58,747 nucleotides of DNA, taken from NCBI GenBank assembly GCA_004431415.1, contig QPMI01000019.1, positions 1 through 58,747 on the forward strand. The letters run 5' to 3'. This document shows, one piece after another, positions 32,912 through 58,747 of the stretch (its first letter is position 1; every line of letters starts with the position of its first letter). The DNA is from Cyanophora paradoxa CCMP329. Taxonomy: Eukaryota > Plantae > Glaucophyta. The notes below the pieces were generated by a model that was given only the letters and a program-made list of their open reading frames with translations, had not been told where the DNA came from and ran no database searches. Position numbers and translations under genes: made by a program.

Positions 32912-33193
32912 TGTCGCATCCGGCATTATAGCGGATGCTCGTTTGTGAGCCGCTAGGGCTCTAGATGATGTGCGCAGCCTTCGTGCTGCTAGATCGACGG
33001 CGCCTAGGCTAGTTAGAGCGCCGCGGTCGTTTGTATCGTGTGTCGGGGTACGCCGTAGTTGGACGGGTACACCCTCAGTCTACCATCACGGTGGCTAACA
33101 GCAGCAGCACTCGCCAAACCCCGCCCTGCCGAGCTTGCACTCCGCACGGGCTTCCCGCGCGCACGATTAGACACACTAATCTCGCACGCGACA
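32912..33193 (+). repeat. 5' LTR, 282 bp
   Basis: Begins TGTCGC and ends GCGACA (terminal inverted repeat). Repeated at 58480. Confidence 0.95.
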
Positions 33194-33218
33194 GGCGCCA
33201 TTCTGCCGGAATCGAACC
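33194..33218 (+). promoter_or_regulatory. Primer-binding site complementary to a tRNA 3' half
   Basis: GGCGCCATTCTGCCGGAATCGAACC immediately after the LTR. Its reverse complement GG-TTCGATT-CCGGCAGAATGGC-G-CC contains a T-loop and the CC end. Confidence 0.85.
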
Positions 33219-33669
33219 TTCAAGGGTCGCTGGACTTCCAGGCTCTGCCCGCGCCGCGCGCCTCGCCGCGCCGCCTCGCATAAGCTTAGAGAGATCTGGG
33301 ACGAGCTTTCCGGGCGACCGCCACTTGTGGCGTGCTACGCTGCACACTTCGGCCGCGTCGCCTCTGGGCGGGCTGATTGTGCTTCGGAAGTGACTCTAGT
33401 GTCCCTCGCGGGCTTCGGTGCATCCCCAGACCGAAGCGCACGCACGAGCTCTCGCGAGAGTCTCAATCATTGTCTGTGTCCCTTCGCCGGTTGCACGCTT
33501 CGCGTCGCAAACTGTGCCCCGGAGTCTGCCAGCGGCAGTTCTCTGAGTGTCCCTGAGTCGGTTCTCGCACGCCACGAGAAGACCGTGTCCCGGATCTGCA
33601 GTGCGCTGCAGATCAAATCTTGCGCCCTGGCATTCTGTTCTCGTGGCTATACGCTGCAAAGAGAGCAAT

Positions 33670-36600
33670 ATGTCGAACACTTCTGAACTGATCAGTTCTG
33701 AAGTCCGTAGCCAGCTGTCCGCACTTGCGCACGTTGAGCCTGCGAAGGCCGAACTTGCTGTGCAGCTCGCTGGCACCGCCGCTGCGGCGGAGGATGATCC
33801 CGCGCGGATCGCCTTCCTCCCCGCGAAGCCGCGCCTCGCCGACGGTGACCGGTTCCGGAAGGATGTCCGGAACTTCCAGTCGGCTCAGCCGACGAAGTAT
33901 CTCTTTGGCCCGGACACTGCCGGCGGCCAGGAGTATACTAAGTCTGAGGCGCTTGCCGGAGTGATCGTCGGGCGCATCCGCCCCGGCGCCCTCCGCGCCG
34001 AGATTGAGCGTAAGCGCGACCTCTATGAGGCCTCTATTGCTGGCCTGGAGCGTGACCGCGCCCTGCTTGCTCGTCTCGAACTTGTCCCGGCTGATCTGCG
34101 GACTGCCGAGGATGAGGCTGCAATCTTGGCGCTGCAGCAGAGCTGCGCGCGCGATCATGCCACTATCGTGGCCGTGCGTGACTCGTACTTGCGTGCCCCC
34201 GGGCTCCTCGCGACGATCACGGCATGGATTCATGAGACGCGCCCGCACGCGGCCCGCCGGGCTCTCACTGAGCCCTACACGGGCGAGGACCCGCGCTCAT
34301 GGCATGACTGGTTCATGCCCCTAGTACAGCACACGCTGCCCCAGGGCCAGCGCCTCGCCGTGTACTATGCGGAGTGTCTGCGCACTGCGCTCGAGGCCCG
34401 CTCGACGAGCGAGGACCCGGAATATCAGAACCTCGATGTTCGGATGGCCGGGTTCGCCCAGGCGAATGAGCGCACGCTGCGCGCGTTCCTCGCCGCGCTG
34501 CAGCAGCGCATCCTTGCACAGGACGGCGCCCTGTCGCCGCTCCAGCTCGACGAGATCTTCGTCGCAGCGTGCAAGACGCACGGCTGCCGCACCGTGCTGC
34601 CCCCCACGGCCACGGCCGCGCTCGAGGCGCCGGAGGCTAAGAAGCCCCGCGTGCGCAAGCTGGCGCCGGCAGCGGCCGCCGCCAGCGACGACGACGGCGA
34701 CGAGCCCATCGAGGCCGTTCCCGTCAAGTCCGTCAATGCGGCCCCGGGCACGAAGGCCCCGCAGGGTGCGCCCGTCGCGGGTCGCCGGCACCCCGACGAG
34801 GAGCGCCTGGGGTACCCGAGCACGACCACGTCCCCATGCCCCCTGTGCATGCACGTGGAGATGCCGGCCCTCGACCGCTGCCACTTTACGTGGAACTGCG
34901 TGTGGGGCACGGCCCCCTTCCCCAATATCCCCTACTCCGAGTGGGTGAAAGGGATTGCGGAGAAGCGCGCGCGGCGCCGCGATCGGCCGGCGCGCGAGGA
35001 GGATGCCGCCGATGAGCGCAGCGAGCCCGGCCCGACCCGCGGCGGGTTCTCGCACCGCGGCGGGCACCGCCAGGAGCCGTACGCCCGCGGCGGCTACCGC
35101 ACCGACCGCGGCGGCTTCGGCCGGGACCGCGGCGGCGGCTACAGCCGGGGCGGAGCCACCCGCGCCCCCGCCTCCGGTCCGAACCAGCGCCCGCTGGGGA
35201 AGGGCAAGGAGAAGAGCGCCCAGGACGACCGTGAGCCGGGCTGCTGGACCTGCGGGTCCCTGGACCACATCCGCCGGGACTGCCCGGACGCTGAGTCCCA
35301 GGGCCGCGGTGGACGCGGCCGGGGCTACGGCCAGGACATGAACCGCGGGCAGCGGCCCCGGTTCAACCATCAATGCTTTCACTTATCAGTTTTACTATCG
35401 CTCAGTTGTTGGTGGCTTTGGCGCCTATTTAGCTCATCATCGTACCTTGTCTTCGATTTTCAACTGTACTCCAATTTCTCACCCAGCTCGTACCATGCTT
35501 TCGACCCTCACTCCTTTGCAGACCAAGCCCCATTTCCTTCAAGCATATGATGTCTTTTATGGCCTTAAGACTGTTGGTGTCTCTGATGTGGTAGACCAAT
35601 TTTTCCCGATCGAGCTTTCTTATTATCAATCTGTTCTCCGTACTGCCCCTGAGTCCTCCAATGGTGCTGGCCCCTCTGGTGCTAAGCCACCCCGCTTCCT
35701 CATTCGCCTTGGCGCCCAAGCCTTCCTGGCTGAACTCAAAACGATGGCACTTAACCTTTCCAAGCCAGATTGTGTCTTTATGTCTTCGCTTCCTGTTGAG
35801 CGTGTAGAGCTGAATTCTGAGAACACCATCCCCTTCAATCCCTTCAAACTCGCTGGCTTGGATAAGTCCATTCCTTCTCCAGTTTTTCTGGCAGCTGCTT
35901 TTACTCAGCCTGTACTTGATATGGTCGCTAAGACCACTTTCACTGGCTCTGGCTCCCGCTATGATCTTCTTTGTCGCCCTGAGCTTGGTGATTTCCCTGC
36001 TGCTCATACCGATCGTGCTCATCTTAGTCTCATTTTGAAAGTGCCCTTGGCTTCTATGCTCTTCCAGAGCCTCGAGCGTCGTACTAGTTTCATCAAGCCT
36101 CGGCCTGCTCGGCCCCTTGCTATGCGTTCCCTCATGATTCTTGGCTCGGACAACTACATTCACAAATTTTATGTGCAGACTCTTCTTCCTGAGTACTCTT
36201 CTCTTGAGTATTATTCCTCTCTTGCTCACAATGGCAAGGCTCTCGATCCTTCTTCTTACTCTTTTGCCTCCACCTCTCCTTGCTACCAGATCCCTTGCCA
36301 GGAGCCTGACAAAAATTACAGCATTCTTGATGTTGATGAGCACACCTTCTTGTACCACTTCCATCAGGATCCCATGTTTTACTTTTTGCCTGCCTCTGTG
36401 CGCCCCCGCCTCGATGCTTTTTATGATGAGGCTCGCAAGCAGCTGGCCCTTGAGAAATCGTTTTCTGATTCATTTGAGGAAGGTCAGCATCTCGATGGCA
36501 CTGGCCGTAGCCCTAGTGCTAAGCGTTCTCGCCCCTCTGATCCCTCTACTCCTTCTGGTTCTAATGACACAATTGTGTAATTTTTTTCTGTACTTCTAAT

Positions 36601-37112
36601 CTTGAATGATCGTCTTCGGTTTCCCTCTCTCCCGTCTTCCCTAACACCCTGTCTGGCCTGTTAGGGAGCAGGTCAGTTCAGGAAGTTAGGGCTTTTTCTT
36701 TGCATGGGGACCCTACGGCCCGGGTAGGGACTTTGTGCAGCTTGTCTTTCGCAGGTTCTCGAGAGCATCTCTCATCACTACCCACGCTAGTGGGTCCCTG
36801 ACAGAGCCTTGCAAGCTCCATTAGGGGCCTCTGCGGTTCTGTCATACCCAGTCTTGCTGGCGTGGGCGTGTCTTTTACTTGCTCTCTCTCTCTCTCCGGT
36901 TCAACCAAGTTCGCGCCGAGAACGAGCCCCGCTCTGACTCGCCGAACCCGGCCGCCATGGCTGCATTCTTCCAGCACCTGCAGGTGCTGCAGCAGCAGGC
37001 CGCCCTGCACGAGAGCGCGCGTGGCGCCAGCTCCTCGTCTGCCGCAGTGCAGGCGGCAACCCGAACGCTGGCGCCCCTCCGGGCGGCCCGTCCATCCGGT
37101 CGCTCTCCGTGA
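33670..37112 (+). CDS. gag: Gag-like region, interrupted by the 1.5-kb insertion (segments 33670-35369 and 36908 onward)
   Basis: CWTCGSLDHIRRDC knuckle at 35242-35283 and RGG-rich flanks. The frame resumes as ..PRFNQVRAENE.. once the insert and one TSD copy are removed. Confidence 0.85.
35370..36580 (+). CDS. C-terminal part (about 400 codons) of an unknown ORF within the insert
   Basis: The frame of ORF 35447-36580 stays open back to the 5' junction (NAFTYQFYYRSVVGGFG..). First ATG at 35495. Strong T-ending codon use. No RT or endonuclease motif recognised. Confidence 0.65.
35370..36895 (+). mobile_element. 5'-truncated retroposed insert of unknown origin with (TC)n tail
   Basis: 12-bp TSD CCGGTTCAACCA at 35358-35369 and 36896-36907, an abrupt switch to T-rich composition, and a (TC)n run at 36882-36895. 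Confidence 0.85.
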
Positions 37113-37403
37113 TGCCTGTGGGCACGGATTCCGACTCGGACGAGGCTGCGGCCGTGGCAGCGGTCCGCCAGCCGTCCGACGCCCTCGCCATGGCCGCCAA
37201 GGCGCGCGACCAGGCCGCCTTCGATGCCGCTGCGGCGGACATCTCGGCTGGCGCCCTCGACGATGCCACTCGCGAGGCTGCGTTCGAGCGGGACCTCCGC
37301 TGCGCCAACCCGGCCAGCGAGGACGGCTCCGGGGAGTCCGAGCTTGGGGAGAGCGACGCCGAGCGGCTCGACACGGACTCCGAGTCCGCCCCGAGCTCCG
37401 ACC

Positions 37404-40400
37404 ATGGTCTCTTGCATTAGCACACAACACAACTACAATGAGTTTCACATCGCCCAATAAATCTCTCCGACTAGATACTATCGAGGACCGTCGTATGCTG
37501 TGCTTTAGAAAGTACAAAATGAACGAAAGGTTTGAAGGTTTCGTGTCTAGATATCTAGCTAAGGAGGTTTCTACCTAATACTAATGATGTGGAAGCTAGC
37601 TGTATCGATTTCTAAACTAACCTAAACTCCCGGCTACGAGGTCCTATCTCTACAAAAGACTCCCAATCATGGTACGTCCGCCGCCAGCGCTGCCCAAGGG
37701 CCTCGCCGCGCCGTGTGCCAGGCTCCTCGCCAGCCCCAGTAGATTGGGCTACTGGCCGCCTCCTGCCGTCGCCTCCGCCGCCTCCAGTTGTTGGTGTTGC
37801 GTCCTCCGGCCCCGCCCCAGACCGCAATCCCCCCGTGTCTCCCTCTAGCGCGGGCGCGCCCTTTTTGTGCCCACGCCCCAAGCATACCTGTTCGTATGGT
37901 CGTACACTTGCATGGCCGCCGAAGCCCGGACCCAGCCGTAGTCGTCTGGCGGGCAGCTCAGGTGTGAGAGGGCTAGGGTTTCCCCGCCCTGGTGGCGGGA
38001 CTCGAGGGCACCGCACTCCCTGCAGCGTTCCCGCTGCCGGGCTCCGGATCCGCGCGCTTCCTGCGAGCGTTGCCAGCCGTATCGTCAGGCGGCGCGTCGG
38101 CCTCGCGGTCGCGCGCCCCAGTGCGCTTCGCCTTGGCGCGACGTTCTTTCATGACCTTCGTGATCCCGCACGCCTTCTCCCACTCCGCGTACGCCTGGCA
38201 TCTGGCGGCCCACGTTTTATGGGCCTGCTCGCCTATGGCCGTCGCCAGCTTGCGCACGACCTGGGCAGCTTTCTTGGCGTCCGGGACGGTCTCGCGGACC
38301 ATGTCGGTGAGGCCCGCCGGGGGCAGCCCCCGTAGCACGCACATCTGCGCCTGCCGTTCAGCCGCCGTGAGCGTCGGGTCGTTGACTCTCGTGACCTTCA
38401 GGGATCTGGAGAGCGCGTGTGGCACTGATCGCTTCTGCGCGCCTTCGAGGGCCTCGCTGACCGTCGCTGCGATGCGTGCTTCCGCAGCGGTGCGCGCCTC
38501 CGTCGCCACCGCGCTGGGGCAGGTGAGGACGTGCTCCAGCGTCTCCTCGGCCCAATCACAAGCCGGGGCCGGCCTTCGCCATCGATTTCCCGCGTGCTGC
38601 AGAGCGCACAGAGTCCTGCCGGGTTCACTTCGCTGTAGAGCTCGGGCGCGTCTCGCTTGCGGACGAGGGCCGTCGCCACCGTACCCATCACGAGTTTCAT
38701 GTGCGTACCCCGGAAGCAGTTGCTCTCCCGGCTCACCCCGACTCGGCGGGGCCCCATAGCCATCTGATCGTACACGGCCCCATGGTCCACTGGCAGCCGT
38801 AGCCACTCCCCGGCCTTGAGCTGGTTCGTCCACGCGAAGTGCGTGTGGTGCGCGTGAAGCACAGCGGCGTGCCGCCGGGGGTCGCCTTCGACTCGCCTGA
38901 CTATCCCGGTCGGTCCCTCGATCGTCAGCACTGCCGGCATGCTGAACTCGGGCGGCAGGAAGATGTTCTCGTCCAGTTCCTCCTGTTCCAGGTGCGCGCC
39001 TTGATCGGCCGCTCTGTCGGCGGCGTCGTTTAGCTCGTGCATATCCTCGTCGCTGTGCGCCTTGACCTTGATAACCGCAGCCGGCCGCTGCCGATCCCGT
39101 CCCATCACCAGGGCACGGAACTTGGACCACGCGTACAGCTCAGCGCTGCACGTGTTCCGGATGTAGTCTCGCATGTGCATATCGTGCGCATTCAGCACGA
39201 ACTTATCGAACCACGTGCAGACGTTCTGACTGTCCGTGTGCAGGCGCACCCCCTGCGCCGCGAGCACGTCGGCGACGATCGCAGCCTGGAGCTCAGCCTT
39301 GTTGTTCTCTTGAAGCCCGCGCAGCCTGCCAACGTACGTGCCTGCCCATTCCGGGTGGTTCGCCACGGTCCCGTCCGGGAACTCAGCCGGGCTCACGACG
39401 CCGAGGCCCGCGTGCGCCCCTTCCGTTTGACCCTTCTTCAGGCTCCCGTCCGTCCATATCCACTGCTCGAGTTTCCCCGGGCGACGGCCGAGCTTCGCGA
39501 GTTCCGCCTCTTCGATCTGCTCCCAATTTGCCAGCATGTGCTGCCAGTAAACGGTGAGGGTGACCCCTTCCTGCGCCGCCCGGGAGTCCCAGTGGCACGG
39601 CGCTCCGCCCGCGTAGTAGAGTTCGCTCTGCTCTGCTGAATCTGACACAGGTTGTGCCTCGTCCCGCGGCTCGGCGCCCGGCGTCGCCGCCGCAGCCACT
39701 TCCAGCGCGGCCTGCAGCTCAGCCTCGGCCTCCGGGCTCAGCTGTTCGCGGAGGAAGCGCTCGTCACCATCCTGTACGGCTTTCACGCGGGCCTGGAGAA
39801 GCAGCGCCCTGCGTTTCTCGTCGTCTTGCGTGCGCAGGCCCGGGTCGTAGTACTCCAAGGTCGGTCGCAGGGCGACCTGCTTGCGCCCGCGCTTCGACTT
39901 CGTCTCCTGACCCGCCGCTACCGCCGGCGTCTCCTCCGTCGGTTCGCCTTCCAAGGCGAGGAGGGTATCCTCCTCCTCCCACCAGCCCTTCCCGTGCGTC
40001 CACGAGCCGTCGCACTGACTCATTTCGGGCAGCGCGATGGAGCATTGCGCGTGCACCGGTCGTCATGGTGCCAGTACTGCTTCCCTGTCCCCTGCACCGC
40101 CGTGTACGTGCTCGTCCGCCCTCTATTTCGGGGTGCCGGCAGTGACCGTCGCACCGGCAGTAGAGTCCCTCTTTCTCCGCGTCGGGGTCCGCGCCCTTCG
40201 GCACCGGCACCCAGTGCTCCAGCAGGTACTCCGACGCTAATATGCTGCCCGTCTCGGATTTGAACGTAACGACTCGCCCCACGTGGGGCTCGGCAGATTC
40301 ATCGTGCAGTTGCTCCGCCTCAAATACGGCTACGAACGCGTCCTTTGCCCACTTCACCTTCCGGGCCCCGCCAGGGAGCGAGGCCATGGCTGACGCGCGC

Positions 40401-43400
40401 TCTCCTGCCCGCCGCATCGGGTGCCGCAGCTGCTTCCCATCAACCGCGAGCGCGTTCGCTACCTCACGCCACCACGCAGGTTCGCTCTTCTGCAGCGTCC
40501 CCTTGGGCGCGCCCATGTACAGGTCCTGCCAGGTTCGCAGGGTCTCGCCGTCCGCTGCCGTCACCGCGTCCATGGTCGTCACGCCCGCCCCGTACAGGGC
40601 AGGGGCCGCGACGCTGAAGACGGATCTTGGGATGTGCATTGCCACGACGTAGCGCCGGTCGAGGCGCTCCGGGTCAGGCCAAGGCTCCGCCCCGGGCAAG
40701 GTGCGGAACGCCGCATAGCGCGCGTGATTCGACATCAGCCGGTACTTACGGCGCTGCATTTGCGGCATGATCGCCGCCAGGGAGTTCCCGCGGGCGAGTT
40801 CGCTGGAGATGGGCGCGTTTAGGAACTCGGTCGGGAGCAGAGGCACCCCAAGCTTCTCCTGCAGTGCGCGCACCCGGTGCCGTACCCCCGAGCCAGCAGC
40901 GAGCCCTCGGGCGCGCAGAGCCGGATCTGAGCCTCTGTGATTTGCGCCTCCGCTTGCAGGTGGGCTGTTCGTTTGAGGCTGTACCCCCCGTGGCTCCAGA
41001 TTGCGTAATTCGTCGTCGAGGCGGCGAGGTTCCCGTGGTGCTTGACGACCCTCATCCAAATACGATCGAGTTCCTGGCACTGACTCTCGCTCAGGGTCAT
41101 GAGCTTCAGGCCGTACGAGATGCGGGCCTGCACTACGGCCTCGACAAGGTAGCAGGCCTCGTTCGCGGTGAGCTTCTTGCGTTCTATCAGCGCGACTGCG
41201 CCCCGCGCCTGATCGCAGATGTACTGCCACTGACGATCCCAGTTCAGGTTTGCGCTCATGTATACCCCGAGGAGCTTGAAGTGCTCTTGGGGCTGGCGGA
41301 CAAGTCCGACGGGGGTACCGTTGATCTTCGGCGGGGAGGGCTGCTTCTCCTTCTTCTTCGCGGCGGGGTGGGCCCCAGGTTTGCTCTCAACTTCGCGACG
41401 TGCGTTGTTCCACGTGAAGATCGTCTTCTTCGCGTTGACCTCGATATCGTGCAGGCGGAAGAACTCGCCGGCCACGTCGGCCTGGGCCTGTAGCCCCCGC
41501 ATGCTTCCGCTCATCCACTTCGTGTCATCGGCGTACGCCACGCCGCTGACGCGGGCCCGGCCCTCGCGTTCCGCAGCATCGGTCTCCCTCGGGTTCCCCA
41601 TCACGTACGCCGTGCCCGGCTCCTCCCAGCTCTCGGGGTGGCATAGTGCTCTATCGTCTTTGCCGTCTTCTTTCCGTGCTGGCGCTCGTGCTGATCCAGG
41701 CGCTCTTGCGCGCAGAGGAGGGCATCGTAGAAGATCAGCCAGTGCAGCGGCGACTCGACACCGCCCTGCGGCAGCCCGCACTCGAGCTCGAACTCGTCGG
41801 AGAGGCCGTGACCGGAGATTGCCCGCGCCCTGCGGCGCCGGAATATGTTCCTGTGGAGCTCGATGTACCCCTCGGGTACGTTCAGCCTCCGCATCGAGAG
41901 CTCCATGCTCTCCCACGAGACGGAGTCGTACGCTCGCCTGATATCCTGCAGCAGGATGTACAGGGGCTTCTTGAACTCCTTCGCGTCCTCGAGGACTGCG
42001 TTAAAGACGTGGAGGGCGTCGTCCGTCGAGCAACCAGGTCTGAAGCCGTAGTTGGCCCCTTTCAGGAGCCCGTTCTGATGGATTGTCCGGGACAGGCGCG
42101 CGTTCAGGAGGCCAGTGGTCAGCTTCAAGGCCACCTCCTGCAGGGTGATCGGTCGCAGGTTATTTTCGATATCCCCGTCCCACTCCCGGCTCTTAGTAAT
42201 GCCGAGAATGTTGCCCTGACACACGGCATCCGGCAGGTCCCGGAGGCGGATCGCTTCAGCCACCAGCGAGAGCAGCAGCTTCCGGCCCCAGTGTACGGGC
42301 TCCTCTTCCGTGGCCTCCTCGGCGCTCTCGTTGGCTGGGCTCGGGCCCTCCGGCGCTGGGCCACCGGCCTCGTCGCCCTTACCGTCTTTGGGCTTCGGCT
42401 TGGGCACCGGCGCCCATAGGAACTTTACCATAGCATACGAGAAGTTCGACGGCCCGGCTGCCGTGTTTCTTAGCGTTTTAATGTAGTCGCCGAGCTCGCC
42501 TTCGCTCGGCACCGACATGTCGTTTCGGAATAGTTCAGGATCCGCGTATGCTTTTGGCTCGTATTCCAACCTCCAGAAGTCGAGCAGTTCTTTCCCATGC
42601 TATCCTTCAGCGTGCTTTCCGGTATTGTCTCTGGGGTGCAGCCCACGCGTGGGCGTCGGCGCCGGCACCATTTCCGCCAGTGCTCTTTTAGGAGTCGTTT
42701 CACTTCCTCAGGCTCCGTGTAGATTTCATACGTTTTTCCGTCCTTGGACACACGCGTGATGTGCATGATCGGGCGGTTTCGCGGCTTTTCTAGCACCGCG
42801 GCTATATAGGATCCGAGCTGGCGGCCGTCCATGAACTTGTCTAGCCTCTCTTTTAATGCCCTCTCGACGTCCTCCGCCTGGAGCGCCCGGCGGATTTTCT
42901 GCAGGTCGTGCCGCGTCCGGTTTCGCCATACTTTCAGCTCCCGGAAGAAGGTCGCCCAGTCTTCTTTGAGCTGCCGCCGGTGCACCTCGGCCCAGTCCTC
43001 TTCCTGATCAGCCGGGGGGTACCTGGGGACCGGGTACGGCTGGGACCGGCGCGGGGCTACCGCTGCGCGAGCCTTGTGAGCTGTGCGAGCTCGAGTGCGC
43101 ATGTGGGATCCGGGCGGCGGTGAGCCTTGCTCAGCCCTTGCTTGGCGCCGTTCAGCCGGACGGAGCGGGAAGGGTCGGAGGCCTTCCCTGGCGGTCACGT
43201 AGTGCAGCAGCTTCTCGATCGCCTGGACCGTCAGCTCCGACGGGATCCCGCCTGGTTCCTTCCTCCAAGCAGCGAGAATGCGGGCGACTCTGGCGTCGGC
43301 CTTCGCCTGCCACGGCAGGTTGCGCGGCTTGGTCGGCTTCCCCCTCGGCCCCTCATGCATAGATGTTCCTTTGCCACCTCCTGAACAAGGCTCGCGCACG

Positions 43401-45902: not shown

Positions 45903-45922
45903 GTCCGCCCCGAGCTCCGACC

Positions 45923-48900
45923 CTGGCCAGGGCTCCGCGCCCTACGCCAGCGACACCTCGAAGCCCGCCTATTTCGGGCCGTTCGGTTCTCCGGACCGCG
46001 ACGTGCCCCAGGCACCACCCCGGTGCTCCACGAAGTCGTGGGCACTGGATTACATGCCGTATGACCACGTGCCTGCCACGGACGTGGAGAAAGAGGGCGA
46101 GCGCGAGGGCGGGCCCTACCTGCCCCGCTACGTGAGCCCGGTGCTCATGCCGCTCACAAAGTGGTACGCCCACTTGACGGCCAAGCCCCGTGACCTAGAG
46201 CGCGCCGTTGGGCTGCTCTTCACGAACGGCCTCGACGACGCGAAGCAGACGCTGCTCGTTCGCGAACTCGCTCAGGAGGGCCCGAAAGGCATAGTCCTTG
46301 ACCGGTTCCTGGGGGCCTGCGGCCTGCGGCGCCCCGAGCGCCTGCTGCTGGGTCGCCTGGCGCACCGCACCGAGGCTCACTCCCTCGCCTGCGTGATCAA
46401 GGCTGCGGCGACGATCGCCAAGCTCGATTACCGCCTCCAGGAGGGCCCCGATTCGAGCATTGCGATGCTCGCAATCCGCGGTGCCCAACTCAGCCACCCC
46501 GTCACCAAGTGCTCGGGTATTGGCTCGGCGCCTGATCCTGAGGATCTTTGGCCCGACAACCCCAATGAGCTCGACGTCGCCTCGCTGAAAGCTTGGGACG
46601 ACATGCTCTTGTCGTGGGAGCGGCACGCGCCCGCCTCGAAAGTCTGGGGCCTCGCCTCAGACTCGAGCGCACTGCCGGACAGCGAGCGTCTACCGCTGCT
46701 GTCCCTGCTCGTTTCGTCGGCGTACCTGCTCGCTCAGCCGGGCCTGAAATGGCCGGGGATCCAGCACCTGCAGGTCGAACCGAACGGCAACCCGCGGTTC
46801 GACATTACGCCCGACGGGAACGTCTCCCGTACCGTGACGGGCTACCACGCCATGCGCACAGCGCTCGCTGCAGCTCGTGAACTCCTCGACGAGGATTCCG
46901 ACTTCCACGCTTACTGCGTGCAGCTTGTGCTTGCCATAATCCGATTCCGGACCCTTACGGTGCTGCCGGGCGCACTCGGATTCGAGAAGGGCAGCCTTTT
47001 CGCGTGGATTAGCCCTAAGGACGTGGCCCCGCCACTGTCGCTGTTCCAAACATACACGGAGCGGCTGACTGAGGTCGCCGGAGCCACGTGCTTCGACACG
47101 CGCGCCAAGGGCACCGTCCCCGAGCGCGTTATCGCCATGCAAAACAGCCGCCGCGCTCGCTGCATGGCCGGGGAGCCGCCGCTCGTGAACCTGTCCGAGC
47201 TGGTGCAGCACGGCTCAGACCTTGAGGGGTTCCGGGCCATCAAGTTGCTCCCCCGCGTCGCCGTGCGCCGCCTGGCCAGGATCCTCGACCTGCGCCGCCC
47301 CACGGAGTTCAGCAGCTTGCTGTTCTCCGACTGGCTCATGGGCTTGGGGACCTATCACGCCGCCCCCACGGTCGTGGTAGACAGCCCCGTCGGCCCCGGC
47401 GAAGGGCTCCGGTTCCGGGAATTCCCGAATGCCGACCCCCTCATGCTCGGACCGAGCGTTGAAGCGTTCTACGATCGCTCCTACCCGATCACTCGCCGCG
47501 GGCGGTGCTGTGACTACGATGTCATTGAGCTGCTGGCATCCCGCACTGTCCCCCGTGAGGGCCGTGGCCCGCTCCCAGGCGGCGTCCGTGACTCGAGCGA
47601 GTACTCCTGGCTCGTGAACGCCCTCCACGGCGAGTTCTCTGCCGCGAACCGCTGGGGTGAAATGCACCGTAGCATTTTCACCTGGGTTTGCTACTGCATC
47701 TCGCAGTCCGGCGTCCGCGCCGTTGCTCTGCTCGAAAAGCCGCGCGACCGCGTGCGCTTGATGCTGGGCGAGGTACGCCGCCGCTTCACGGCCAAGCGCT
47801 CGCACCGCCCGGTCTGGGATGAGTTCGATGACGACCTCCAGACCAGCGACCGCATGGCTCGCGAGGTCGCCGAGCGTGAGGCCGCCGCCGGCCGCCGTGG
47901 CCGCGGCAAGGGCAAGGTCGACGAAACGACCTCTGCCGCCAAGCCCGCTCGCCCCCGCGGCACAAGCCGCCGGCCCGCCCCCGCCAAGCCGGCAAATGCC
48001 GAGGCTGAGGGCGAAGGGGAAGCGGAAGAGGGCCCCGGCACGACGCCCGAGCGCGTCCAGTACTGCGACAAGTACTGCGTGCTGCTGCCCGACCCGCTCG
48101 GCGGCAACCCGGCCCGCAATCCGACGGCCGAGCAGTACCCGTGGGCTGCTATTCCGCGGCTCGTGCCGCTCACCCTCGGCGAGAACGGGCCGCCCGACGC
48201 GCCCTGCGTGAATGCGACTGCCCCAGTCGTCACGCGTTTCCACCCGAATGCGCTCGACGCTGATGCAGCCATGCACTGCCTTGCCTCCACGCTCATCGCA
48301 AACGTCGAGGGCCATAACCGCGGCATCCCCGCCGCGGTAATGTTGTATGGCCCGCCCGTGCCACCGGCACCGACGTCCATGCAAGGCACCGACGTTCAGG
48401 GCTTGCCCTACGTCGCGGCGATGATGGGGCTCGACGAGTCCATCATGCAGTGGGTCGCGTCGGAGCCCACCCCCGCAAACCGCCTCGATGGGCCGATCAC
48501 GCGCGCCTACTCGGTGCTGAACACCGCCCTGCACCACACGTGCCGCCAGGCGTTTGCGTACCTCGCTCGCCCGCACACGTTCGAGGCGCCCATCGGGGTC
48601 AACCGCGCCAAGCGCGGGCAGCGCTTGGTCGTGTTCCACGAGCCCCGCTTCGGCAGGGGCTTCGGCATCCGTGGCGTCGCCCAGCCCGATGCCCGGGTCC
48701 GCGGCCTCCTGCCAGGAACCCCGATCCAGACGGGCGAGAAGCACGTGAGCACTGAGCTCGACGTGAACAACGTCGATGTCATGGGCGACCCCGTCGGCAC
48801 GACTGCCACGCGCTGCTCGCTTGGTCCCGCCCACGTGGCCATGCAGCACGCCCCGCCCTCTGAGGCGCGTCGCCAGTACGACCGCCTCCCTCGGCGCGTG

Positions 48901-51450
48901 TTCGTGCTCGGGTTCGAGCGGCCCCGCCCGCTCGTCGATCCGAAGGACCGCGGGCACCGGAAATACCCGGTCGTCTGCCCGGGCGTGCAGAAGCACGGAC
49001 CCACGTGGTCCCCGTTGCCGCCCCGTGAGTTCGTCGCATCCCTGCTTGCGGGGTATGTGAACAGCATGGCTGCCTGGGTGCTGGGGCACGAGCTGCCCGA
49101 CCAGCCCCGGCCTGCGCCGGCCACGGGATTCAACCCCCAAATGCACATTGTGGGGCCGACGGCCATATACGAGTTCATGTGGTCCACCTGCTACCGCGCC
49201 GACCCGGCCACTCGTTCCGCGGCCGAGGCAGCAGCTGGGGCCCATGCACGTTCCGCTGACGGCGACGAGCTTTACGCCGTCCTGCAGCACGTCAAGAGCG
49301 GCCAGCTCGGCGAGTCGATTGACGAGTCCGCAGCTCTCGTCATCGCCTCTCAGCTCCCGCTGACCACGGCGTTCTGGCTCTCGATGCCAGACCTGCCGCG
49401 CCCCAACGCCACGCATACGTCCTGGCTGGACAATGCGGCGGACGCCAGCAAGCGCCTCTCGGACGCTCTGCTGCAGATCTGGGGCCTGCCGGCGACGAAG
49501 CAGCTGCGCGCTGTTCTCGCCAAGTACGAGCAGGAGGACGAGCCCCTCCTTTCCGTCCGCCGCCTTGAGCGCATCCTGCCCGCTCGGGTAGCGGCGCACG
49601 GCATGCGCCCGTACTGCCACGTCGAGCGCGATACGTGGGCAGCCAGGCACCTCGTTGCTGGCGCGACGCTCGCGGGCCAGGAGCCCATCGCCTCGGCTCT
49701 CCTGAACTGGGTTCAGAAGATCAATGACGTCCTCTGGCCCATCTTCACGGGCGTGAAGGCGAAGCGGATTATGGTCTCCGACCTCTATCCCGCCCCCGCC
49801 CTGGACACTGTCGCCCAGCAGGGCGCGGCGCCGTTCCCTGCGCCCCCCGAGGCCAGCGGCCTCGGCGACACGGTGGCGGCAATCACGCCGTTCCACTACC
49901 GGCTGCGCGCCGAGCTGCTCCAGAACTGGAACGGGTACACGGCAGAGGATCTGCCCCCGAGCTTGCGCGCCCAGCAGCAGGCCGACCACGCCGTGGCAGC
50001 GACCGCCCAGGCGAAGCCTGTGGCATCGTCCTCTGCCTCGGGCACCACGGGCTCTGGCTCCCGCGAGCCCAGCCCTGCCCCCAAGCGCTCGGCCACGCCC
50101 TCGCCCTCGAGGAAGCAGAGCGAGACGAAGCGCGAGCGCTCCCGCGACCGCCGCGGGCGCCGCCAGAGCCGCGAGGCCGCCGCTTCCCGCGAGCGCACCG
50201 AGTCGCCCCGGCAGGAGTCGTCGAGCTCCCCTGCCCCGACGCGCACGCAGCCGCCGGGCGCCACCGGCCAGCGCCGCGAGCGGCCGCGTATCCTGCAGGG
50301 CAGCCGCGTGACCGTTCGCGGCACCTTGCCCAGCACCTCGTCCACGGGACCTGAGTCCCTCGACCTGGCTGACATGGACGACGCCGAATTCACTGCCTAT
50401 GCCCGCCAGCATGGCCTTGAGTTCGAGCCGGACCCGGCCGAGGACACGCGCCAGCGCCTCCTCGCCGAGGCCGAGCGCCGCAGCAAGCGCGCCCGCGTTG
50501 CTGCCCAGTCCACCGCGGAACTGGCCCCCGCGCCGTTCCCGTACCCGTACCCGGCGTCGATGGGCCCGCCCCCGCCGCGCGTACCCGGTTGGGGGTTGCC
50601 GCCGCCCCCACTCTTGCCGCAAATCGCCGGCCCGCACGGCTATTACTGGCCGCACGGCCTCATGTACCCGCCTGCGGGTCCCGCGGCCAGCTCGAGCTCC
50701 GGCCAGGCACCGCCGGCCACGGACGAGAATGTGGGCAGTGCCCACTACCAGGCCGCCAAGAACTGGCGCGCGCGCCTGCGGCTCCTGCTCGAGCGCAACG
50801 CTCAGCCGGCCGTCTTGTCTGAGATGCTCGATGAGATCGCCACGGCCGCGGGCCATGATCTCACCGGCACCACCTTGCCGAGCGGCGCCTCTTGGGCGGC
50901 ACGGAACGCCGCTGCGACGGTGTGGGCCGCAAATTACCCGGGCATGGAGCAGTTCGATCGCATTGAATCTGAACTGCTGCGCCTCATCGGCCTCGCCCAG
51001 GAGGCCAAAGCCGAGGGCCGCTGCCGCCCCGCACACCGCGCCATTCTCCGTATCTACGGCGATGGTGACGATGAGGATGACTTCGCGACGCGCGCTGCAC
51101 TGCAGCCGCGGGCCATCGCCGAGCGCGCCTTGGCCTCCGCCGCTGCCGGCAGCGAGCCGACGCCCGTCATCGACGGAGCGGATCGCAAGTCCTCTGCCGC
51201 TCCGACGAGCCGCTCCGAGGGCTCCACGCCCGCTCCAGCAAGCAGCGCGCCGCGCTGCACTTCCAGGCTCCTGAGCCTGACGAACTCGTGGCTACGGCCC
51301 CGACCGCCCCACGGACCTCGCGGTCCCGGAGTCCCCGGATGGCGCGCCCGACGGCCGCCTGAACGCCCCGGTCCCGATCGCGAAAGTTATCGACGGGATC
51401 AACGGTCTCCCGCACGATTTCCGGCGCCTGCTCCTGCAGTGCCCGGGCTT
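45923..51450 (+). CDS. Large uncharacterised polyprotein region of the LTR element (about 1,850 codons; its N-terminal part is 37109-37403)
   Basis: In frame with 37109-37403 across the LINE TSD (SESAPSSD-PGQGSAPY..VPQAPP). Uninterrupted ORF with normal coding composition. Confidence 0.8.
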
Positions 51451-51460
51451 CGTCTATGCC

Positions 51461-51889
51461 TTGCATGCCGACGGCACGCTCGGCGAGAGCACGCGCGTCA
51501 AATTCATTTTTGACACTGGCGCAATGGGAGATGTTGGCGAGAAAAAGCACATGCCGCCCGGCACGCGCTACACGGGTGTGAAGGTCCTCCGGGCCTTCCT
51601 CCACCACGCCACGATCACGGCTGAGATTGCTCATGTCGTGCTGCGCTTCGGCGATGTGTACGTCTCGCGAGCGGTGTACGTCGTCCCCGACGGCTCGCTC
51701 GGCCCGAACGCCGACATGCTCCTGGGCATCGGCACGATCATGAGGATCGAGGGGCGGATTGACACCACCAGCTCGGGCTGGTGCCTGCACGCGCGCGACG
51801 CGCACTTCCGCCCCCACGTGATCCCTTTTCTGTGCCCGGACAATCAAAGGGGCCTCTCCTTGTCCGGGTGCTCCGCCCCGTCGTCCTAA
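51461..51889 (+). CDS. Retroviral-type aspartic protease domain
   Basis: KFIFDTGA active site and downstream DMLLG motif. Confidence 0.85.
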   Translation: MHADGTLGESTRVKFIFDTGAMGDVGEKKHMPPGTRYTGVKVLRAFLHHATITAEIAHVVLRFGDVYVSRAVYVVPDGSLGPNADMLLGIGTIMRIEGRIDTTSSGWCLHARDAHFRPHVIPFLCPDNQRGLSLSGCSAPSS

Positions 51890-53029
51890 AGGACGCCCGC
51901 GAATGGATGGTCCGCTGCGTGTTGGACGGCCCTGCGCCGCCAGCGGACCAGGCCCCGACGCTCGCCGTCGGGCCGGCGCCTGACTCCCTGTCAGCGCTCG
52001 GGGTACTCGCGCCCCACCAGTTGCACCGCCGGCCTGCCGAGGGCGGCAGCCTGCACGTGCGACTAGTAAACCCCGCCAATGAGCCCGTCCTGCTTCCCGC
52101 TGGGGCCATTGTAGCGGTGGCGGAGGCTAATAACCTGCCGCCCGGCGACTTTGGGTTCGACCCGCCGCCCGACGACGCGTCGGCGCGCACCGTCGCCGAC
52201 TCTTTCATTCGCACGCTGCGAGCCTTCTACCCTAAGCGAGGGCAAGGCTTCCGCGCGATGCGCCGCCGAGCCAATCGAACGGCTGCGGCTTACACGGCAG
52301 CTGAGGGCACCACGCCGCCCCAGCACCCCGCTCCAGGGCCTATTTTCGCGGCACCCGCCGCCCGGCAGTCCGAAGCGACTGTAGCCACTGAGCAGGAGCC
52401 TGCGCCGAGCGCGCCTCCCTTGTTCGTCCGCATGCTGCGCGACGACGGCAGTGAGGGCGAAGACGTCCCCATTGTCACAATGGAGGGCCTCGCGCTTTGT
52501 GACGAGCCCGTGTCCTCGGACACCGACTCTGAACGCGAGCGCGAGGACGGGTACCTTGGCTGGACCTCGCCCGAGGAGCGCGAGCGCACCAGGCCCGCCC
52601 GCCGCGCTGAACGCGCCGCACGCCGCCGCGCCCACGCGGCTCGCGCTGCACGCCAGGGGGCTAACGCAGTCCCCACCAATCCCTCCGGGGATCAAATAAA
52701 TCTCGCTGCCGAGGCAGCTGAGCCGCCGGCGCCCGCGCCGAGCGGGGCCGCTCGCCCGCCTGCACCGGCGCCAGCAGCGCTGGCAGGCCCCGGCTGCTCT
52801 GTCCGGACAACGGAAGCGCCCGCGCCCTCCGTAGCCGAGTCCTCCGCCGCGCGCGGCAAGGACAAGGGCAAGGCGCCGCTGCGAGCCGCCCCTCCGGGCC
52901 CCGCGCCTGGCCCCTCCCACGGTGGCGCCCCGCGGGCACCGCCGGAAGCGACGGGGACGTCGTCTTCCGAAGAGGAGGAGTGGAACCGTGCACGCGCGAA
53001 GATCCCGGAATGCGGCTCGCATCCGGCGA

Positions 53030-54420
53030 TGAGCGCTACGGAACGCGCCGAGCTAGAGGCTCTGCTGAAGCGCTACTCGCGCGCGTTCGCCGACTCGGTC
53101 ACGGCCACTGAGGGCACGGCCAATCTCCTCCATTACGAGCACGTGATCCGATTGACCTCACGGCTGCCCGTCTTCACGCCCCCGCGGCGTGTAAGCCCGC
53201 ACGCCGAGGCCTTCGCCCGTGACGAAATAAAGCGGCTCCTTGAGCTGGGCCTGATCCAGCCCTCGCAAGCCGCCTATGGCTCGCCGGTCGTGCTCGCTCC
53301 TAAGAAGGACGGCACCTGGCGGTTCTGCGTCGATTACCGACGCTTAAATGCGATCACCGAGCGCGATGTCTTTCCCTTGCCACGGATTGACGATCAGCTG
53401 GACCGCCTGCGGGGTCCATGATCTTCTCGACCGTCGACGCGACGGCGGGATTCTGGCAGCTGCCGCTGGACCCCGCGTCCCGGCAGTACACGGCCTTCGT
53501 GGTGCCCTGGGCCACTACGAGTGGCGCGTGACCCCGTTTGGCGTGACCAACGGGCCGGCCGCCTTCTCGCGCGCCGTGACGGCCATCCTCGGCCCCTGCT
53601 CACGACTTGCGTCACCGCGTATATCGACGATATCACGGTGTTCTCGCCAAGCGTGCCCCAGCACCTGCTGGACCTCGAGGCCCTGTTCCGCGCTATCATG
53701 CCGGCGAACTTGCGCCTGAAACCCTCCAAGTGCCGCTTCGGGGTGGCGGAGGTGGCCTTGCTCGGGCACCTCGTCTCGGCCGAAGGGATCCGCCAGGACC
53801 CCGCGAAGCTGGCGTTCATTCGCCAGTACCCGCCGCCTGCGAACGCTGACCAATTGAGGTCGTTCCTGGGCTTGGCTGGGTACTACCGGCGTTTCGTGAA
53901 CGGGTTCGCCCGTGTCACCCACCCGCTGCAGCGCCTGCTGCTTCGGGACGCCGTGTGGCAATGGACCGAGGTCCACCAAGCCGCCTTCGAGGCGCTGAAG
54001 GCCGCCCTGCTCGAGGATCTGGTACTTGGGTACCCGGATTTTGAGCGGCCCTTCATCCTGTCGACCGACGCGTCGACGTACGCCATCGGCGCGATCCTGT
54101 CGCAATCCGATGGCGGCTCGCCCGCCCGTGAGCGGCCCATCGCGTTCATCAGTCGAACGCTGGCGCCCGCTGAGCGGAACTACACCGCCACCGAGCTCGA
54201 GTGCCTGGCGGTTGTATGGGCAATAAAATACTGGCGGCACTTCCTCCTGGGAGGGCCCCAGTTCCTGGTCCGGACGGACCACCAGGCGCTCCAGTGGTTG
54301 CGCTCGCGCGAGGCGACCTCGGGAAGGCTGGGACGCTGGTCCCTCCTCCTGCAGTCCTACGACTTTGTCGTAGAGTACCGCGCGGGGCGCAACAACGGAG
54401 GGCCCGACGCCTGCTCGCGG
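53030..54420 (+). CDS. pol: Gypsy-type reverse transcriptase and RNase H (three apparent 1-nt deletions)
   Basis: SPVVLAPKKDGTWRFCVDYRRLN, FPLPRID, GFWQL, PFGVTNGP, YIDD, FLGLAGYYRRF, TDAS, ELECLA and TDHQAL. Confidence 0.95.
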
Positions 54421-55683
54421 CCCCCGCTGAACCACCCGGTTCTCGCGCCCGGCGGCGCCGACGGCAGCTCGGCTGCGCCCGACGCGTTGGCTGGCGCCAC
54501 GGGGCACGGCGTGCCCCAGCCCGGCGACCTTGACGAGCCTCTGCCGCTGTTTGCAGTCGCTCTCGCCGCCGAAGGCGCTGCGGAGGCCCGGGTAGCGGTG
54601 GAGGCCCCGCCGGGCCCCCGCCTGACCGAGCTCGCCGACGAGCCGGCCGAGGCCGCGCCGCCGCCCCCGCGTCAGCGTCCGAGCCCGCCGAGGCCGCGGC
54701 GCCCGCGCTCCGCCCAGCCGGGCGGAGATCCTCGTCGCGCGGCGACAGGCCCGCCTCCGGCGCCAGCTCGCCTTCGAGGGCGCTCCCGCCGCAAGGCGGA
54801 CGTCCAGCCCGCCCAGGGGCCGCGTCCGCGTCGGACGCGCGCGCCGCCTGAGGCTTTCCAGGAGGGCTCTGACGACGAGCCCGTCCCCCTGCCGCGCGCG
54901 CGCCCCGAGCCGCGCCGGCGCGCGCCGAGGCTGAGCCCGCGGGGCCCCGGCGCCGCCCGAGCCCCGAGCTCCTGCCGCGGGCAGGAGGCGCCCCTGCCAG
55001 CGGCGCCGGCGCTGCCGCAGGCCGGCCCGCCCACTCGGCGCGGCCAGAAGCCCACCACCTGGGCTGAAGTGCGCCAAGGGTGGACGAGTGGCACCGCCTC
55101 GCCGTCGCGCAAGGCCTGCCCCCGGCCCCGCGCTCTCCGAGCCCGCCGCCGGCGCCCGAGTCCGACCCGATGGAGCTGGGCTCCGACGGCGAGGCCGCGC
55201 CGCCTGTGCCCGAGCCTGAGACCCCGCGCCAGGCGCAGGAGCCGAGCTCGACGAGGATGGGTTCCCCGTGGCCCTCCTCGAGCACGTACGCCGCCGGCTC
55301 CCCTTGGGGCCGCGGCGCTACGAGGGGCCATCGCGCCCCTGCCGCGCGACCTGCGACCGCCTGAGGCCCCGCGCCGGGCAAGACGCCCGCAAAGCGGACA
55401 ACCCGCGCCACTGGCGCTGCGGCCCGCCGCTGTACCCTCACCAGGACGACCCTGATGAGGGGCCCGAGGCGGCGCCCCGGCGGCGTCGTCCTCCGCGGCC
55501 GCATCGACCGCCGCCGCGACGGCCGGCTCCTCTGAGCCGCCGGCCGCCTCCGAGGCGCCCTCGAGCGGCGACGCCGGCTCAAGTGGCGGCCCGGCCGCGG
55601 GCCTGGAACGAGAGGTCCTCTCGTCCAGCGCCATCGCCCCCGGCCCTGAGCTGGGCGAGGTCCGAGACCGCCGCAAGCCGCGC

Positions 55684-57335
55684 TTGCTCGAGCTGGTCCA
55701 GGACACTTGGGATTGCGCTCCGCCGCCTTCCCTCGACGGGCCCTTGCCCGAGACCCTGCGGCACATGTTCCCTGCCCGGCGAGTCAGGCTGCTCGCCGCG
55801 CAGAAGGCGGACCCGCTGTGCCGCAAGCTGTTCTCCTGGCTAGAGAACGGTGTGAACGAGGCCCGCTGCACGCGCGCCTCTTGCCACACGGGCGACTGCT
55901 ACCTCTGCAGTCAGGCCAAGGCGGCCTTCATCGGATTCGCTGGGAAATTCGACGTGGACACCGACGGCGTGCTTGTCCGCCGCCCGGTCGCGCCTCACGG
56001 CCGCTTCGTGCCCGTCCTGCCTGAGTCCTGGCAGGACCGCGTCCTGTACGCTTACCACGATGGGTGGGGCCACCGCGGCGCCTCGATCGTCGCCCGCCGG
56101 ATCCTGCTGAGGTTCTGGTGGCCGGGCATGCTCGCAGCCGTAGCCCGCTACGTGCGGAGCTGCCCCTGCTGCCAGTTCGCCAAGGCTGTGAAGCCGCGGC
56201 GAACCGCGATCGCAGTCATCGAGGCCGAGGGCCGGAATGACTTGTGGCAGGTGGACGTGTTCCACCTCGACCCGACGCCGCGCGGCAACCGCTATTTGGT
56301 CGCCTGGGTGAACGCGTGGGACAAGTACACGTGGCTGTACCCGAAGGCCGACCTGGACGGCTGGTCCATGCTCGAGATGGGCCGAGACTTCGTCTCGAAT
56401 GAGGGTGTGCCGCTGCGCCTCCTCATGGACAATGGGTCCAGCCTGAAGGGCGGCCCGTTCAACGAGTACTTCCGGAAGCTCGGGACTCGTTTCATTTACG
56501 CCGCGGCGTACCACCATTCGACGAATGGGCTGGTAGAGCGGCTGGGAGGCGTCGTGAAGACGCTGCTCCACGCGGCGTGCCGCGCCGAGCGCGAGCCGAT
56601 GCACGAGTGGGACCAGCACGTGCACGAAGTGCAGCTGGCGCTCCGCACGACCGTGCACGCGGCCACGGGCTACTCGCCCGCGCTCCTGCACCTGGGGCAC
56701 GAGCTCACGCTGCCCGCGGACGTGCGCTTCGGGGTCGAAATGCTCGACACCCTTAGCTACGCCGACTACGTCGCGACCGTAGTGCGCGCCGCGAAGAGCC
56801 GCGATGACGCGGTCCGCGAGCACCGCCGCTGGTACCGCCGCCAAATGGTGCACCGGACGGGTGACCTGCCGGACCGTCGCCGCTTCGAAGTGGGCGACAA
56901 AGTCCTGTGCTGGCTGGGCGACCGTGACAAGGGTTGTTTAACTCCTGGGTCGGCCCGTTCACCGTCATGGACGTGCACCCGGGCGGTACACGTACGTCGT
57001 GCGCGGCCTGGCCCGGCCCTACGGCGCCGTGGGCGCTGTCCGCCAGAAGGCCCGCGACACCCGCGAGACGATCGTGCACATCGATTGCATGATCCCGTTC
57101 CGCATGCACGATGCGAACGCGCCCGCGCGGCCGGCCCGAGGGCGACCGCGGGCGGCGGGCGTACCGGGAGCCGCGGCCGCAGCGCCGGCGGCCCCGGCGG
57201 GAGCAGCATGAAAAGCTGGCTCCGAGCCGCGTCCCGGCCCCACAGGAGGGCGAGGACAGAGAGCGGCCGCGCTTGCAACCGCGCAGCGCGAGAGTGATGA
57301 GCTACCCGCGGAGGGTCGAGCTGAGAAGGGCCTAG
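55684..57335 (+). CDS. Integrase (HHCC, DDE, GPF motif); no chromodomain seen
   Basis: YHDGWGH..CPCCQ, WQVDV, MDNGS, NGLVER, FEVGDKV and WVGPF (after a frameshift). Confidence 0.92.
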
Positions 57336-58155: not shown

Positions 58156-58310
58156 CCGGCACCTGCCGGGCGACAGTCTTTTCGATTCCCGGCAGTTGCC
58201 GGACATGGATGGGCTCGGCGCCTTTTCGATTCCCGGCAGTAGCCGGTGACGCCGAGTACGAGCGGCTCGGAGCCTTTTTCGATTCCCGGCAGTAGCCGGC
58301 GGCTCCGAGC
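58156..58310 (+). repeat. Three copies of TTTTCGATTCCCGGCAGT(A/T)GCCGG hairpin units plus one partial copy
   Basis: Copies at about 58179, 58223 and 58276. CCGGC-N4-GCCGG also occurs at 58156-58169. Confidence 0.9.
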
Positions 58311-58467
58311 GTTGTACATATTTGTAGGGCGAGATTCATGATTGGTGGCGATTTCCCAGCAGGGACCACCCTCTTTGTAAATAGTGACTAGGGCCATGAG
58401 GTTTACCCGGCCTAGTCAGCCCCTTTTTATGATGTTTTGGACGTAGACCCGCGCGGACGCGGGATCC

Positions 58468-58478
58468 GAGAGGAGGAG
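58468..58478 (+). promoter_or_regulatory. Polypurine tract
   Basis: GAGAGGAGGAG, one base before the 3' LTR. Confidence 0.9.
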
Positions 58479-58479
58479 T

Positions 58480-58747
58480 TGTCGCATCCGGCATTATAGC
58501 GGATGCTCGTTTGTGAGCCGCTAGGGCTCTAGATGATGTGCGCAGCCTTCGTGCTGCTAGATCGACGGCGCCTAGGCTAGTTAGAGCGCCGCGGTCGTTT
58601 GTATGCGTGTGTCGGGGTACGCCGTAGTTGGACGGGTACACCCTCAGTCTACCATCACGGTGGCTAACAGCAGCAGCACTCGCCAAACCCCGCCCTGCCG
58701 AGCTTGCACTCCGCACGGGCTTCCCGCGCGCACGATTAGACACACTA
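58480..58747 (+). repeat. 3' LTR (truncated by the window end)
   Basis: Matches 32912-33178 except one indel (gtatcgtg vs gtatgcgtg). Confidence 0.95.

Follow-up and report, generated by a model that had tools for sequence, protein, structure and literature searches.

The window analysed here (58,747 nt; positions 1 to 58,747 of the forward strand of contig QPMI01000019.1, from the glaucophyte Cyanophora paradoxa CCMP329) carries, from position 32912 to its right end, a young retrotransposon of the Ty3/gypsy type with long terminal repeats (LTRs) that is split by two nested insertions. Between Gag and protease (PR), the family to which this element belongs encodes a large additional region, termed the cargo below, which is retained in three subfamilies and is under purifying selection. 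The coding sequence is organized as two open reading frames (ORFs) rather than as one polyprotein: Gag, cargo, and protease occupy ORF1, and reverse transcriptase (RT), RNase H (RH), and integrase (IN) follow in the −1 frame. We favor, as a reasonably probable reading of this organization, a Ty3/gypsy family in which ORF1 combines Gag, a cargo of about 2,400 aa, and the protease, the cargo is cut into accessory proteins, and a −1 shift yields RT-RH-IN.

The cargo region and its conservation

In sibling copies, Gag, cargo, and protease are read in one frame, and the span from the zinc knuckle of Gag to the catalytic DTG of the protease measures 2,434 aa in gene model P0170 (subfamily 3) and 2,357 aa in P0019 (subfamily 1). 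The sequence-only reading of the window had put about 2,000 aa between Gag and protease; the large region is real, and its true size of about 2,400 aa exceeds the earlier figure because the window copy has lost 382 aa. The loss corresponds to a block designated A′, whose 1,146 nt (382 codons) are missing in frame at 48042–48043 (+) but occur in contigs and, for each of the three subfamilies, in sibling proteins (P0001, P0019, P0005, P0170). The blocks that the window retains, all on the + strand, are A (46021–47850, ~610 aa, 61% identical to subfamily 2 and 31% to subfamily 3), B (48046–49950, ~635 aa, 62% and 34%), and C (50710–51150, ~145 aa, 74% and 37–39%). Hydrophobic residues number 28–37 per 100 in blocks A and B and 27 in C, against 10–20 in the linkers, a profile that agrees with the three globular-looking blocks and low-complexity linkers proposed from the sequence at about these places. 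Comparison of the blocks with one another returned E values of 0.28–0.63 (0.028 for A against Gag), on which the idea that they are repeats of one another was rejected.

The 4,924-aa gene model P0170 presents Gag, A, A′, B, C, PR, RT, RH, and IN in that order. Between subfamilies 1 and 3, identity amounts to 39% for Gag, 31% for A, 42–44% for A′, 34% for B, 37–39% for C, and 83% for RT-RH; the cargo is as diverged as Gag across the three subfamilies. Gene models of subfamilies 1, 2, and 3 lie on at least 8, 10, and 4 contigs, respectively, some of which may overlap. Over 45925–49026, the 39 listed differences that set the window apart from the majority contig comprise 30 synonymous and 9 non-synonymous ones, and 28 fall at third codon positions; the ratio of non-synonymous to synonymous differences (pN/pS) is 0.10 (p 3e-11).

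These data bear directly on the possibility that the cargo is a neutral passenger, be it through a single capture event or as a nested insertion, the third in the element. All that speaks for such a passenger is that databases hold no match and that deletion copies exist, and the occurrence of the cargo at the same place and in the same frame in three subfamilies at 31–61% identity, together with the signature of purifying selection, refutes a one-off capture and leaves this explanation with next to no probability. Reads of the cargo from three runs guessed to be RNA form short or low-depth pieces and give no evidence either way on its expression.

Protease, predicted frameshift site, and ORF2

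The aspartic protease and the end of ORF1 occupy 51290–51889 (+), with the DTG at 51512 and a match to Asp_protease_2 (E 0.063 in the window; E 5e-6 to 5e-4 in related families). The protease frame closes at a stop at 51887–51889, and the RT lies in the −1 frame. Contigs cross 51776–52689 without gaps, the −1 shift near 51823 is common to copies, and 12 ORF1 models from the three subfamilies stop shortly after the protease, 125–138 aa past the DTG where measured (P0001, P0007, P0019, and P0020 in subfamily 1; P0013, P0027, and P0152–P0154 in subfamily 2; P0156, P0161, and P0175 in subfamily 3). Because the protease stop is shared by copies and RT-RH-IN is encoded in the −1 frame, the element has two ORFs, and the single polyprotein of about 4,500 aa that had been reconstructed from the sequence is not upheld. 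ORF1 (Gag-cargo-PR) would instead comprise ~3,100 aa and the frameshift fusion ~4,900 aa.

ORF2 (51824–57335, +, −1 frame) consists of a spacer, RT and RNase H (~53000–54420), a long low-complexity spacer, and integrase (~55900–57120); it is broken in the window by copy-specific single-base losses and is continuous in sibling P0034. The best match of RT-RH in the PDB is Ty3 Gag-Pol (E 8e-104), and Pfam recovers the PR-RT-RH-IN order, a gypsy-type RT/RH, and an H2C2-rve integrase. The spacer between RNase H and integrase (54450–55600), ~380 codons rich in Pro, Ala, Arg, and Glu, is also found in related families.

A predicted −1 ribosomal frameshift signal spans 51823–51871 (+) and is composed of the heptamer C CCU UUU in the protease phase and a hairpin at 51832–51871. 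No other such heptamer in phase occurs within 51701–51900, and the coding region as a whole has 3; the hairpin folds with z −2.7 (72 nt) or z −4.0 (44 nt). The predicted site thus shows the two sequence features of −1 programmed frameshifting, an in-phase heptamer of the form X XXY YYZ and a structured element on its 3′ side. Very probably, −1 frameshifting at this heptamer, just after the protease, would set a lower output of RT, RNase H, and integrase. An alternative source of RT-RH-IN would be spliced RNA or internal initiation, with splicing also giving a shorter Gag devoid of cargo and the cargo remaining a minor product. Several predicted gene models do run across the stop of the protease frame or leave out portions of the cargo, and the host genome is intron-rich (PMC6704402); however, these models are ab initio and bridge the stop at differing places, the heptamer is in phase with a hairpin behind it, and the residues [IV]-P-F at the shift site are kept even in families whose RT is only 48–53% identical, all of which render this route improbable.

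A working model for the cargo

Because the protease is encoded in ORF1, before the frameshift, cargo and protease would be made one-to-one with Gag. The protease in turn probably frees the cargo at short conserved motifs embedded in otherwise variable linkers: motifs of the type [VI][KR][ST][VL] are conserved at the capsid/nucleocapsid (NC) and NC/cargo boundaries, LHA.S is conserved before the protease, and IRSL.VMP at 37094–37117, conserved in the motif alignment, constitutes a candidate protease site. We infer that the cargo is thereby delivered as separate accessory proteins, which would act mostly outside the particle after their release. The Ty3 capsid is built from 540 subunits and encloses ~5 x 10^4 nm3 (PMC6525542). 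A set of 540 cargoes of 2,400 aa would occupy ~1.7 x 10^5 nm3 (at 110 Da/residue and 1.21 nm3/kDa), and because this volume exceeds what a Ty3-size capsid can enclose more than threefold, the cargo would probably be located outside the particle.

The same stoichiometry also suits a different proposal, namely that the cargo stays with Gag as a structural part, scaffold or outer layer, of an enlarged or irregular particle that packs the ~17 kb genome RNA. Such a role would be in keeping with a one-to-one output of cargo and Gag, provided that the frameshift reading is right, with a rate of divergence about that of Gag, and with the finding that, in the Cyanophora RT clade, 800–1,300 aa or more precede the protease in each branch for which a protease model exists. 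Yet the cargo is too big for a Ty3-size capsid interior and sits C-terminal to NC, and the cargoes of distant families are unrelated in sequence, unlike a conserved scaffold; we regard a structural cargo as unlikely, though the least so among the rival explanations.

What the released accessory proteins would do is the weakest step of the model. Tentatively, they may act on element DNA or chromatin in the nucleus, either countering methylation-based silencing or tethering integration, a possibility to which we give rather less than even credence. Basic and RS-rich linkers, a LEM-like motif, and host CpG methylation of repeats offer a weak pointer to such a nuclear role; Cyanophora has been reported to methylate and silence its repeats (PMC12344493). 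The motif in question, small and helical with a hint of LEM/HeH likeness (50365–50463, +), was chosen by eye in the basic, RS-rich linker after block B and is aligned in the three subfamilies. Its subfamily-3 version matches PF03020 LEM at E 0.0017 and 18.4 bits (cut-off 24 bits), and the window and subfamily-2 versions do not match PF03020.

Several observations weigh against the model. The candidate cleavage motifs were chosen by eye. With respect to the frameshift, of 454 50-nt windows from this GC-rich element, 11% are as well folded as the hairpin; at the DNA level the signal was observed in subfamily 1 alone, and gene models P0170 and P0171 run from the protease into the RT, possibly by way of predicted introns. 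Copies with internal losses exist, the window copy without A′ among them, and for this reason the cargo may be dispensable in cis; model P0158 even joins Gag directly to the protease linker, reflecting a deletion or a predicted intron. The LEM match lies below the cut-off and concerns one of three subfamily versions. Finally, the cargo blocks have no match in sequence searches of Pfam, PHROGs, NCBIfam, and the PDB, so that no function is assigned to them; AlphaFold2 returned meaningless models for B+C (8 rows, predicted local distance difference test [pLDDT] score 28) and for A′ (3 rows, pLDDT 39). In these same searches the cargo also matches no described retroelement domain, as the sequence-only reading had supposed.

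Searches for relatives of the cargo

No relative of the cargo was found outside Cyanophora in IMG/VR scans, JGI metagenome scans, or tblastn searches of phages. A phmmer search with window positions 46021–49620 against 1.84 billion representatives returned 13 matches, of which 12 are pieces of subfamilies 1 and 2 and one is an unrelated repeat protein; the blank outside Cyanophora is weak evidence, since subfamily 3, a true relative, was missed as well. The cargo shows no transmembrane segment (best 19-residue hydropathy 1.6–1.8), and no ubiquitin-type tail is present in this family.

One further explanation holds that block A, block B, or both represent a dead D5-like superfamily-3 helicase of DNA-virus origin, captured and then retained as a ring that binds nucleic acids. 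In the ESM Atlas, features of A′+B lie near DUF5906/Pox_D5/D5_N clusters at 0.90–0.92, a proximity that was not confirmed by profile tests. With a profile of 89 D5-like proteins, drawn from 93 loci and represented by 87 in the tool alignment, hhalign placed block A on the Walker A site (E 0.014), a score reached by none of 200 column shuffles and none of 200 block shuffles, and the host carries endogenised giant-virus DNA (PMC12344493). Against this, the block A match was not reproduced by an independent profile alignment (z 1.9) or by a tool comparison (E 0.092, at another site), and five blocks had been tried. Block B scores E 0.4–0.6, like the reversed control (E 0.6), and shuffles attain its score in 10 of 100 cases, control windows in 19 of 52. 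The ESM Atlas gave no usable match for block A, shuffled proteins reach 0.9 there in 4–10 of 100 cases, hmmsearch with the D5-like helicase profile found nothing, and the alignments of the three subfamilies hold no intact Walker A motif (GxxxxGK[ST]). A helicase origin is accordingly quite doubtful. Equally doubtful is a more far-reaching picture, that of a glaucophyte clade of Metaviridae for which the Gag-protease frame would serve as a cassette for exchangeable cargo at capsid stoichiometry, the cargo of the present family including a DNA-virus helicase ring and a LEM-like chromatin tether turned to counter-silencing or integration.

Ends of the element, Gag, and nested insertions

The window is GC-rich eukaryotic DNA that shows no CpG loss, and proteins labelled C. 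paradoxa in EukProt are 98–100% identical to the element, in accord with this host. The LTR pair (32912–33178 and 58480–58747) is 99.6% identical over 268 nt. The element displays the paired TG...CA LTRs, primer-binding site (PBS), and polypurine tract (PPT) of Ty3/gypsy elements. The 5′ LTR (32912–33193, +; 282 nt, TG...CA) has a right end placed by its CA and the tRNA-like sequence behind it. The putative PBS (33194–33218, +), as read from the sequence, is the complement of a tRNA-like 3′ end with a T-loop; the complement has one extra base between T-loop and 3′ end relative to ordinary tRNAs and terminates in GGCGCC, which is reminiscent of selenocysteine tRNA; no tRNA family was matched in Rfam for this primer. 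At the other end, the PPT and 3′ LTR span 58465–58747 (+), the LTR beginning at 58480 and being cut by the window end; the remainder of the 3′ LTR and the host target duplication lie beyond the window. A 15-nt motif that occurs three times within the 3′ untranslated region (58181–58292, +) is near-complementary to the PBS: it equals the reverse complement of the PBS plus one extra base, with 3 exact matches against 0.18 expected. These copies could pair with the PBS or serve as B-box-like sites. Just upstream of the element, an exon for a host SpoU rRNA methylase was detected at ~31530–31800 (+; E 1e-10). LTR elements make up 1.77% of the Cyanophora genome, and the main text reporting this figure does not mention gypsy elements (PMC6704402).

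Gag (33670–35369, +) contains a presumed capsid region for which no Pfam family was matched, a C-x2-C...H-x4-C motif (34837–34899) conserved in an alignment of the three subfamilies, and a CCHC zinc knuckle (35239–35286; Pfam zf-CCHC, E 9e-5). The end of Gag and the first linker of ORF1 follow at 36908–37403 (+), as delimited by tblastn of sibling proteins, with 14 gap letters in the contigs. A stop-restart reading at this place (TGATG at 37110) was dropped, as siblings read through in frame.

The two nested insertions interrupt ORF1 on either side of this linker. Insertion 1 (35370–36907, +) measures 1,538 nt, with a 12-nt target duplication and a (CT)n end; this repeat has a lower GC content and one ORF of ~400 codons without a match in Pfam. 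Long contigs cover it not only in DNA runs but also in one run tentatively taken for RNA, and it is possibly a non-autonomous retroposon with an uncharacterised gene. Insertion 2 (37404–45922, −) is a long interspersed nuclear element (LINE) of 8,519 nt with a 20-nt target duplication and matches to RVT_1 (E 2e-15), RNase_H (E 9e-11), and the endonuclease-like Exo_endo_phos (E 0.043). This LINE has its own RNase H and a long 5′ untranslated region, and many related subfamilies appear in the contigs. Contigs from all three DNA-type runs (X1, X2, and X11) join 35357 to 36896 with 12 shared letters and 37383 to 45903 with 20, and sibling proteins read straight across both joints in tblastn; because sibling copies are free of both insertions, neither is part of the family. 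The excision proposed from the sequence, which rejoins the frames at both target duplications, is thus borne out, as is the estimate of about 13.6 kb remaining between 33670 and 57335 (13,609 nt measured).

The −1 shifts that had been seen to break this coding sequence are of two kinds. The one near 51823 is shared with other copies. The others, at least 9 single-base losses that are absent from short-read contigs (listed at 51218, 51289, 53410, 53508, 53592, 55077, 55241, 56930, and 56984), together with a frame break at 37043–37046 that is absent from sibling proteins, belong to this copy or its assembly.

Related Cyanophora families and probable recombination

In a FastTree phylogeny with midpoint root, 26 of 106 RT-RH rows, all from Cyanophora, form one long-branch clade with support 1.0; the other rows are search matches rather than curated lineage references, with no row for the planarian element Burro discussed below. 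Among the Cyanophora gypsy families, P0186, P0188, P0113, P0155, P0159, P0163, and P0190 are distant, with RTs 48–72% identical, and P0190 has a long RS-repeat tract. These distant families have pre-protease regions of their own of 800–1,300 aa or more, which are related among three of the families at 25–34% identity and give no match to blocks A–C. Within the family studied here, subfamilies 1 and 2 are 91–100% identical in RT-RH at the amino acid level, 85% in Gag, and 61–74% in the cargo; the depth of contigs, counted at 95% likeness, is twice as high over RT and integrase. Since RT-RH is far more alike than cargo and Gag and depth is doubled over pol, ORF1 and pol have probably been exchanged by recombination between these two subfamilies.

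Comparison with known systems

The element resembles Ty3 and other Metaviridae in its TG...CA LTRs, PBS, PPT, and PR-RT-RH-IN order, and its RT-RH is nearest to Ty3 among solved structures. In typical Metaviridae, by contrast, the protease follows right after Gag and any frameshift is of the gag/pol type, as in the survey cited in PMC5009743, whereas in this family 2,400 aa separate the two and the shift lies behind the protease. In the open literature (RepBase and subscription journals being outside its scope), our search found no paper on a protease/RT frameshift in a gypsy element and no published description of this lineage.

The closest parallel in layout is Burro/GYPSM1, a giant gypsy-like element of planarians whose 4,873-aa ORF carries accessory domains between the Gag knuckles and the protease (PMC6431247). 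It contradicts the expectation, on which the sequence-only reading had relied, that extra coding sequence of gypsy elements lies only outside gag-pol. Both elements have a CCHC-knuckle Gag, a long in-frame accessory region, and then PR-RT-RH-IN, and their totals are comparable (4,873–5,140 aa in Burro/GYPSM1, ~4,900 aa here; PMC6431247). They differ in that the Burro cargo comprises SUMO-like, BCL-2, Env, MATH, or midasin-like domains, whereas here no block is recognisable by Pfam and no membrane anchor was seen, and in that Burro keeps PR-RT-RH-IN in the same ORF, whereas here a stop and a −1 change separate protease from RT. The two are set side by side on layout only, and the Cyanophora family is a second, probably independent case. 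Of the claim for an undescribed lineage that delivers accessory proteins inside its polyprotein, then, the family-wide, selected, in-frame cargo and the lack of a description found stand, and the single ORF and the unprecedented layout do not; the interest of the case is limited by the Burro precedent and by the absence of an assigned cargo function.

What the family adds is a gypsy element in which thousands of accessory residues, with no recognisable domain among them, are fused between Gag and protease, and in which the move of the predicted frameshift to a position behind the protease would make the cargo as abundant as capsid. The alga can be cultured and its repeats are methylated; with four orphan blocks under selection, and with three subfamilies and deletion copies supplied by nature, the family offers a tractable system for studying the role of retrotransposon accessory proteins and the upper size of a Gag polyprotein.

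In expression logic, the arrangement finds its counterpart among the retroviruses. Alpharetroviruses likewise carry the protease in frame upstream of a −1 shift and the RT downstream of it. A pro-pol frameshift operates in HTLV-1 (PMC5009743). The likeness to alpha- and to beta/deltaretroviruses is confined to this logic, as these viruses are enveloped and have no such cargo. The Ogre/Tat, Athila, and SIRE elements of plants, for their part, are likewise large elements with fast-evolving accessory proteins that mostly lack database matches, but encode them in separate frames (PMC6317226), unlike the cargo described here, which is held in frame between Gag and protease.

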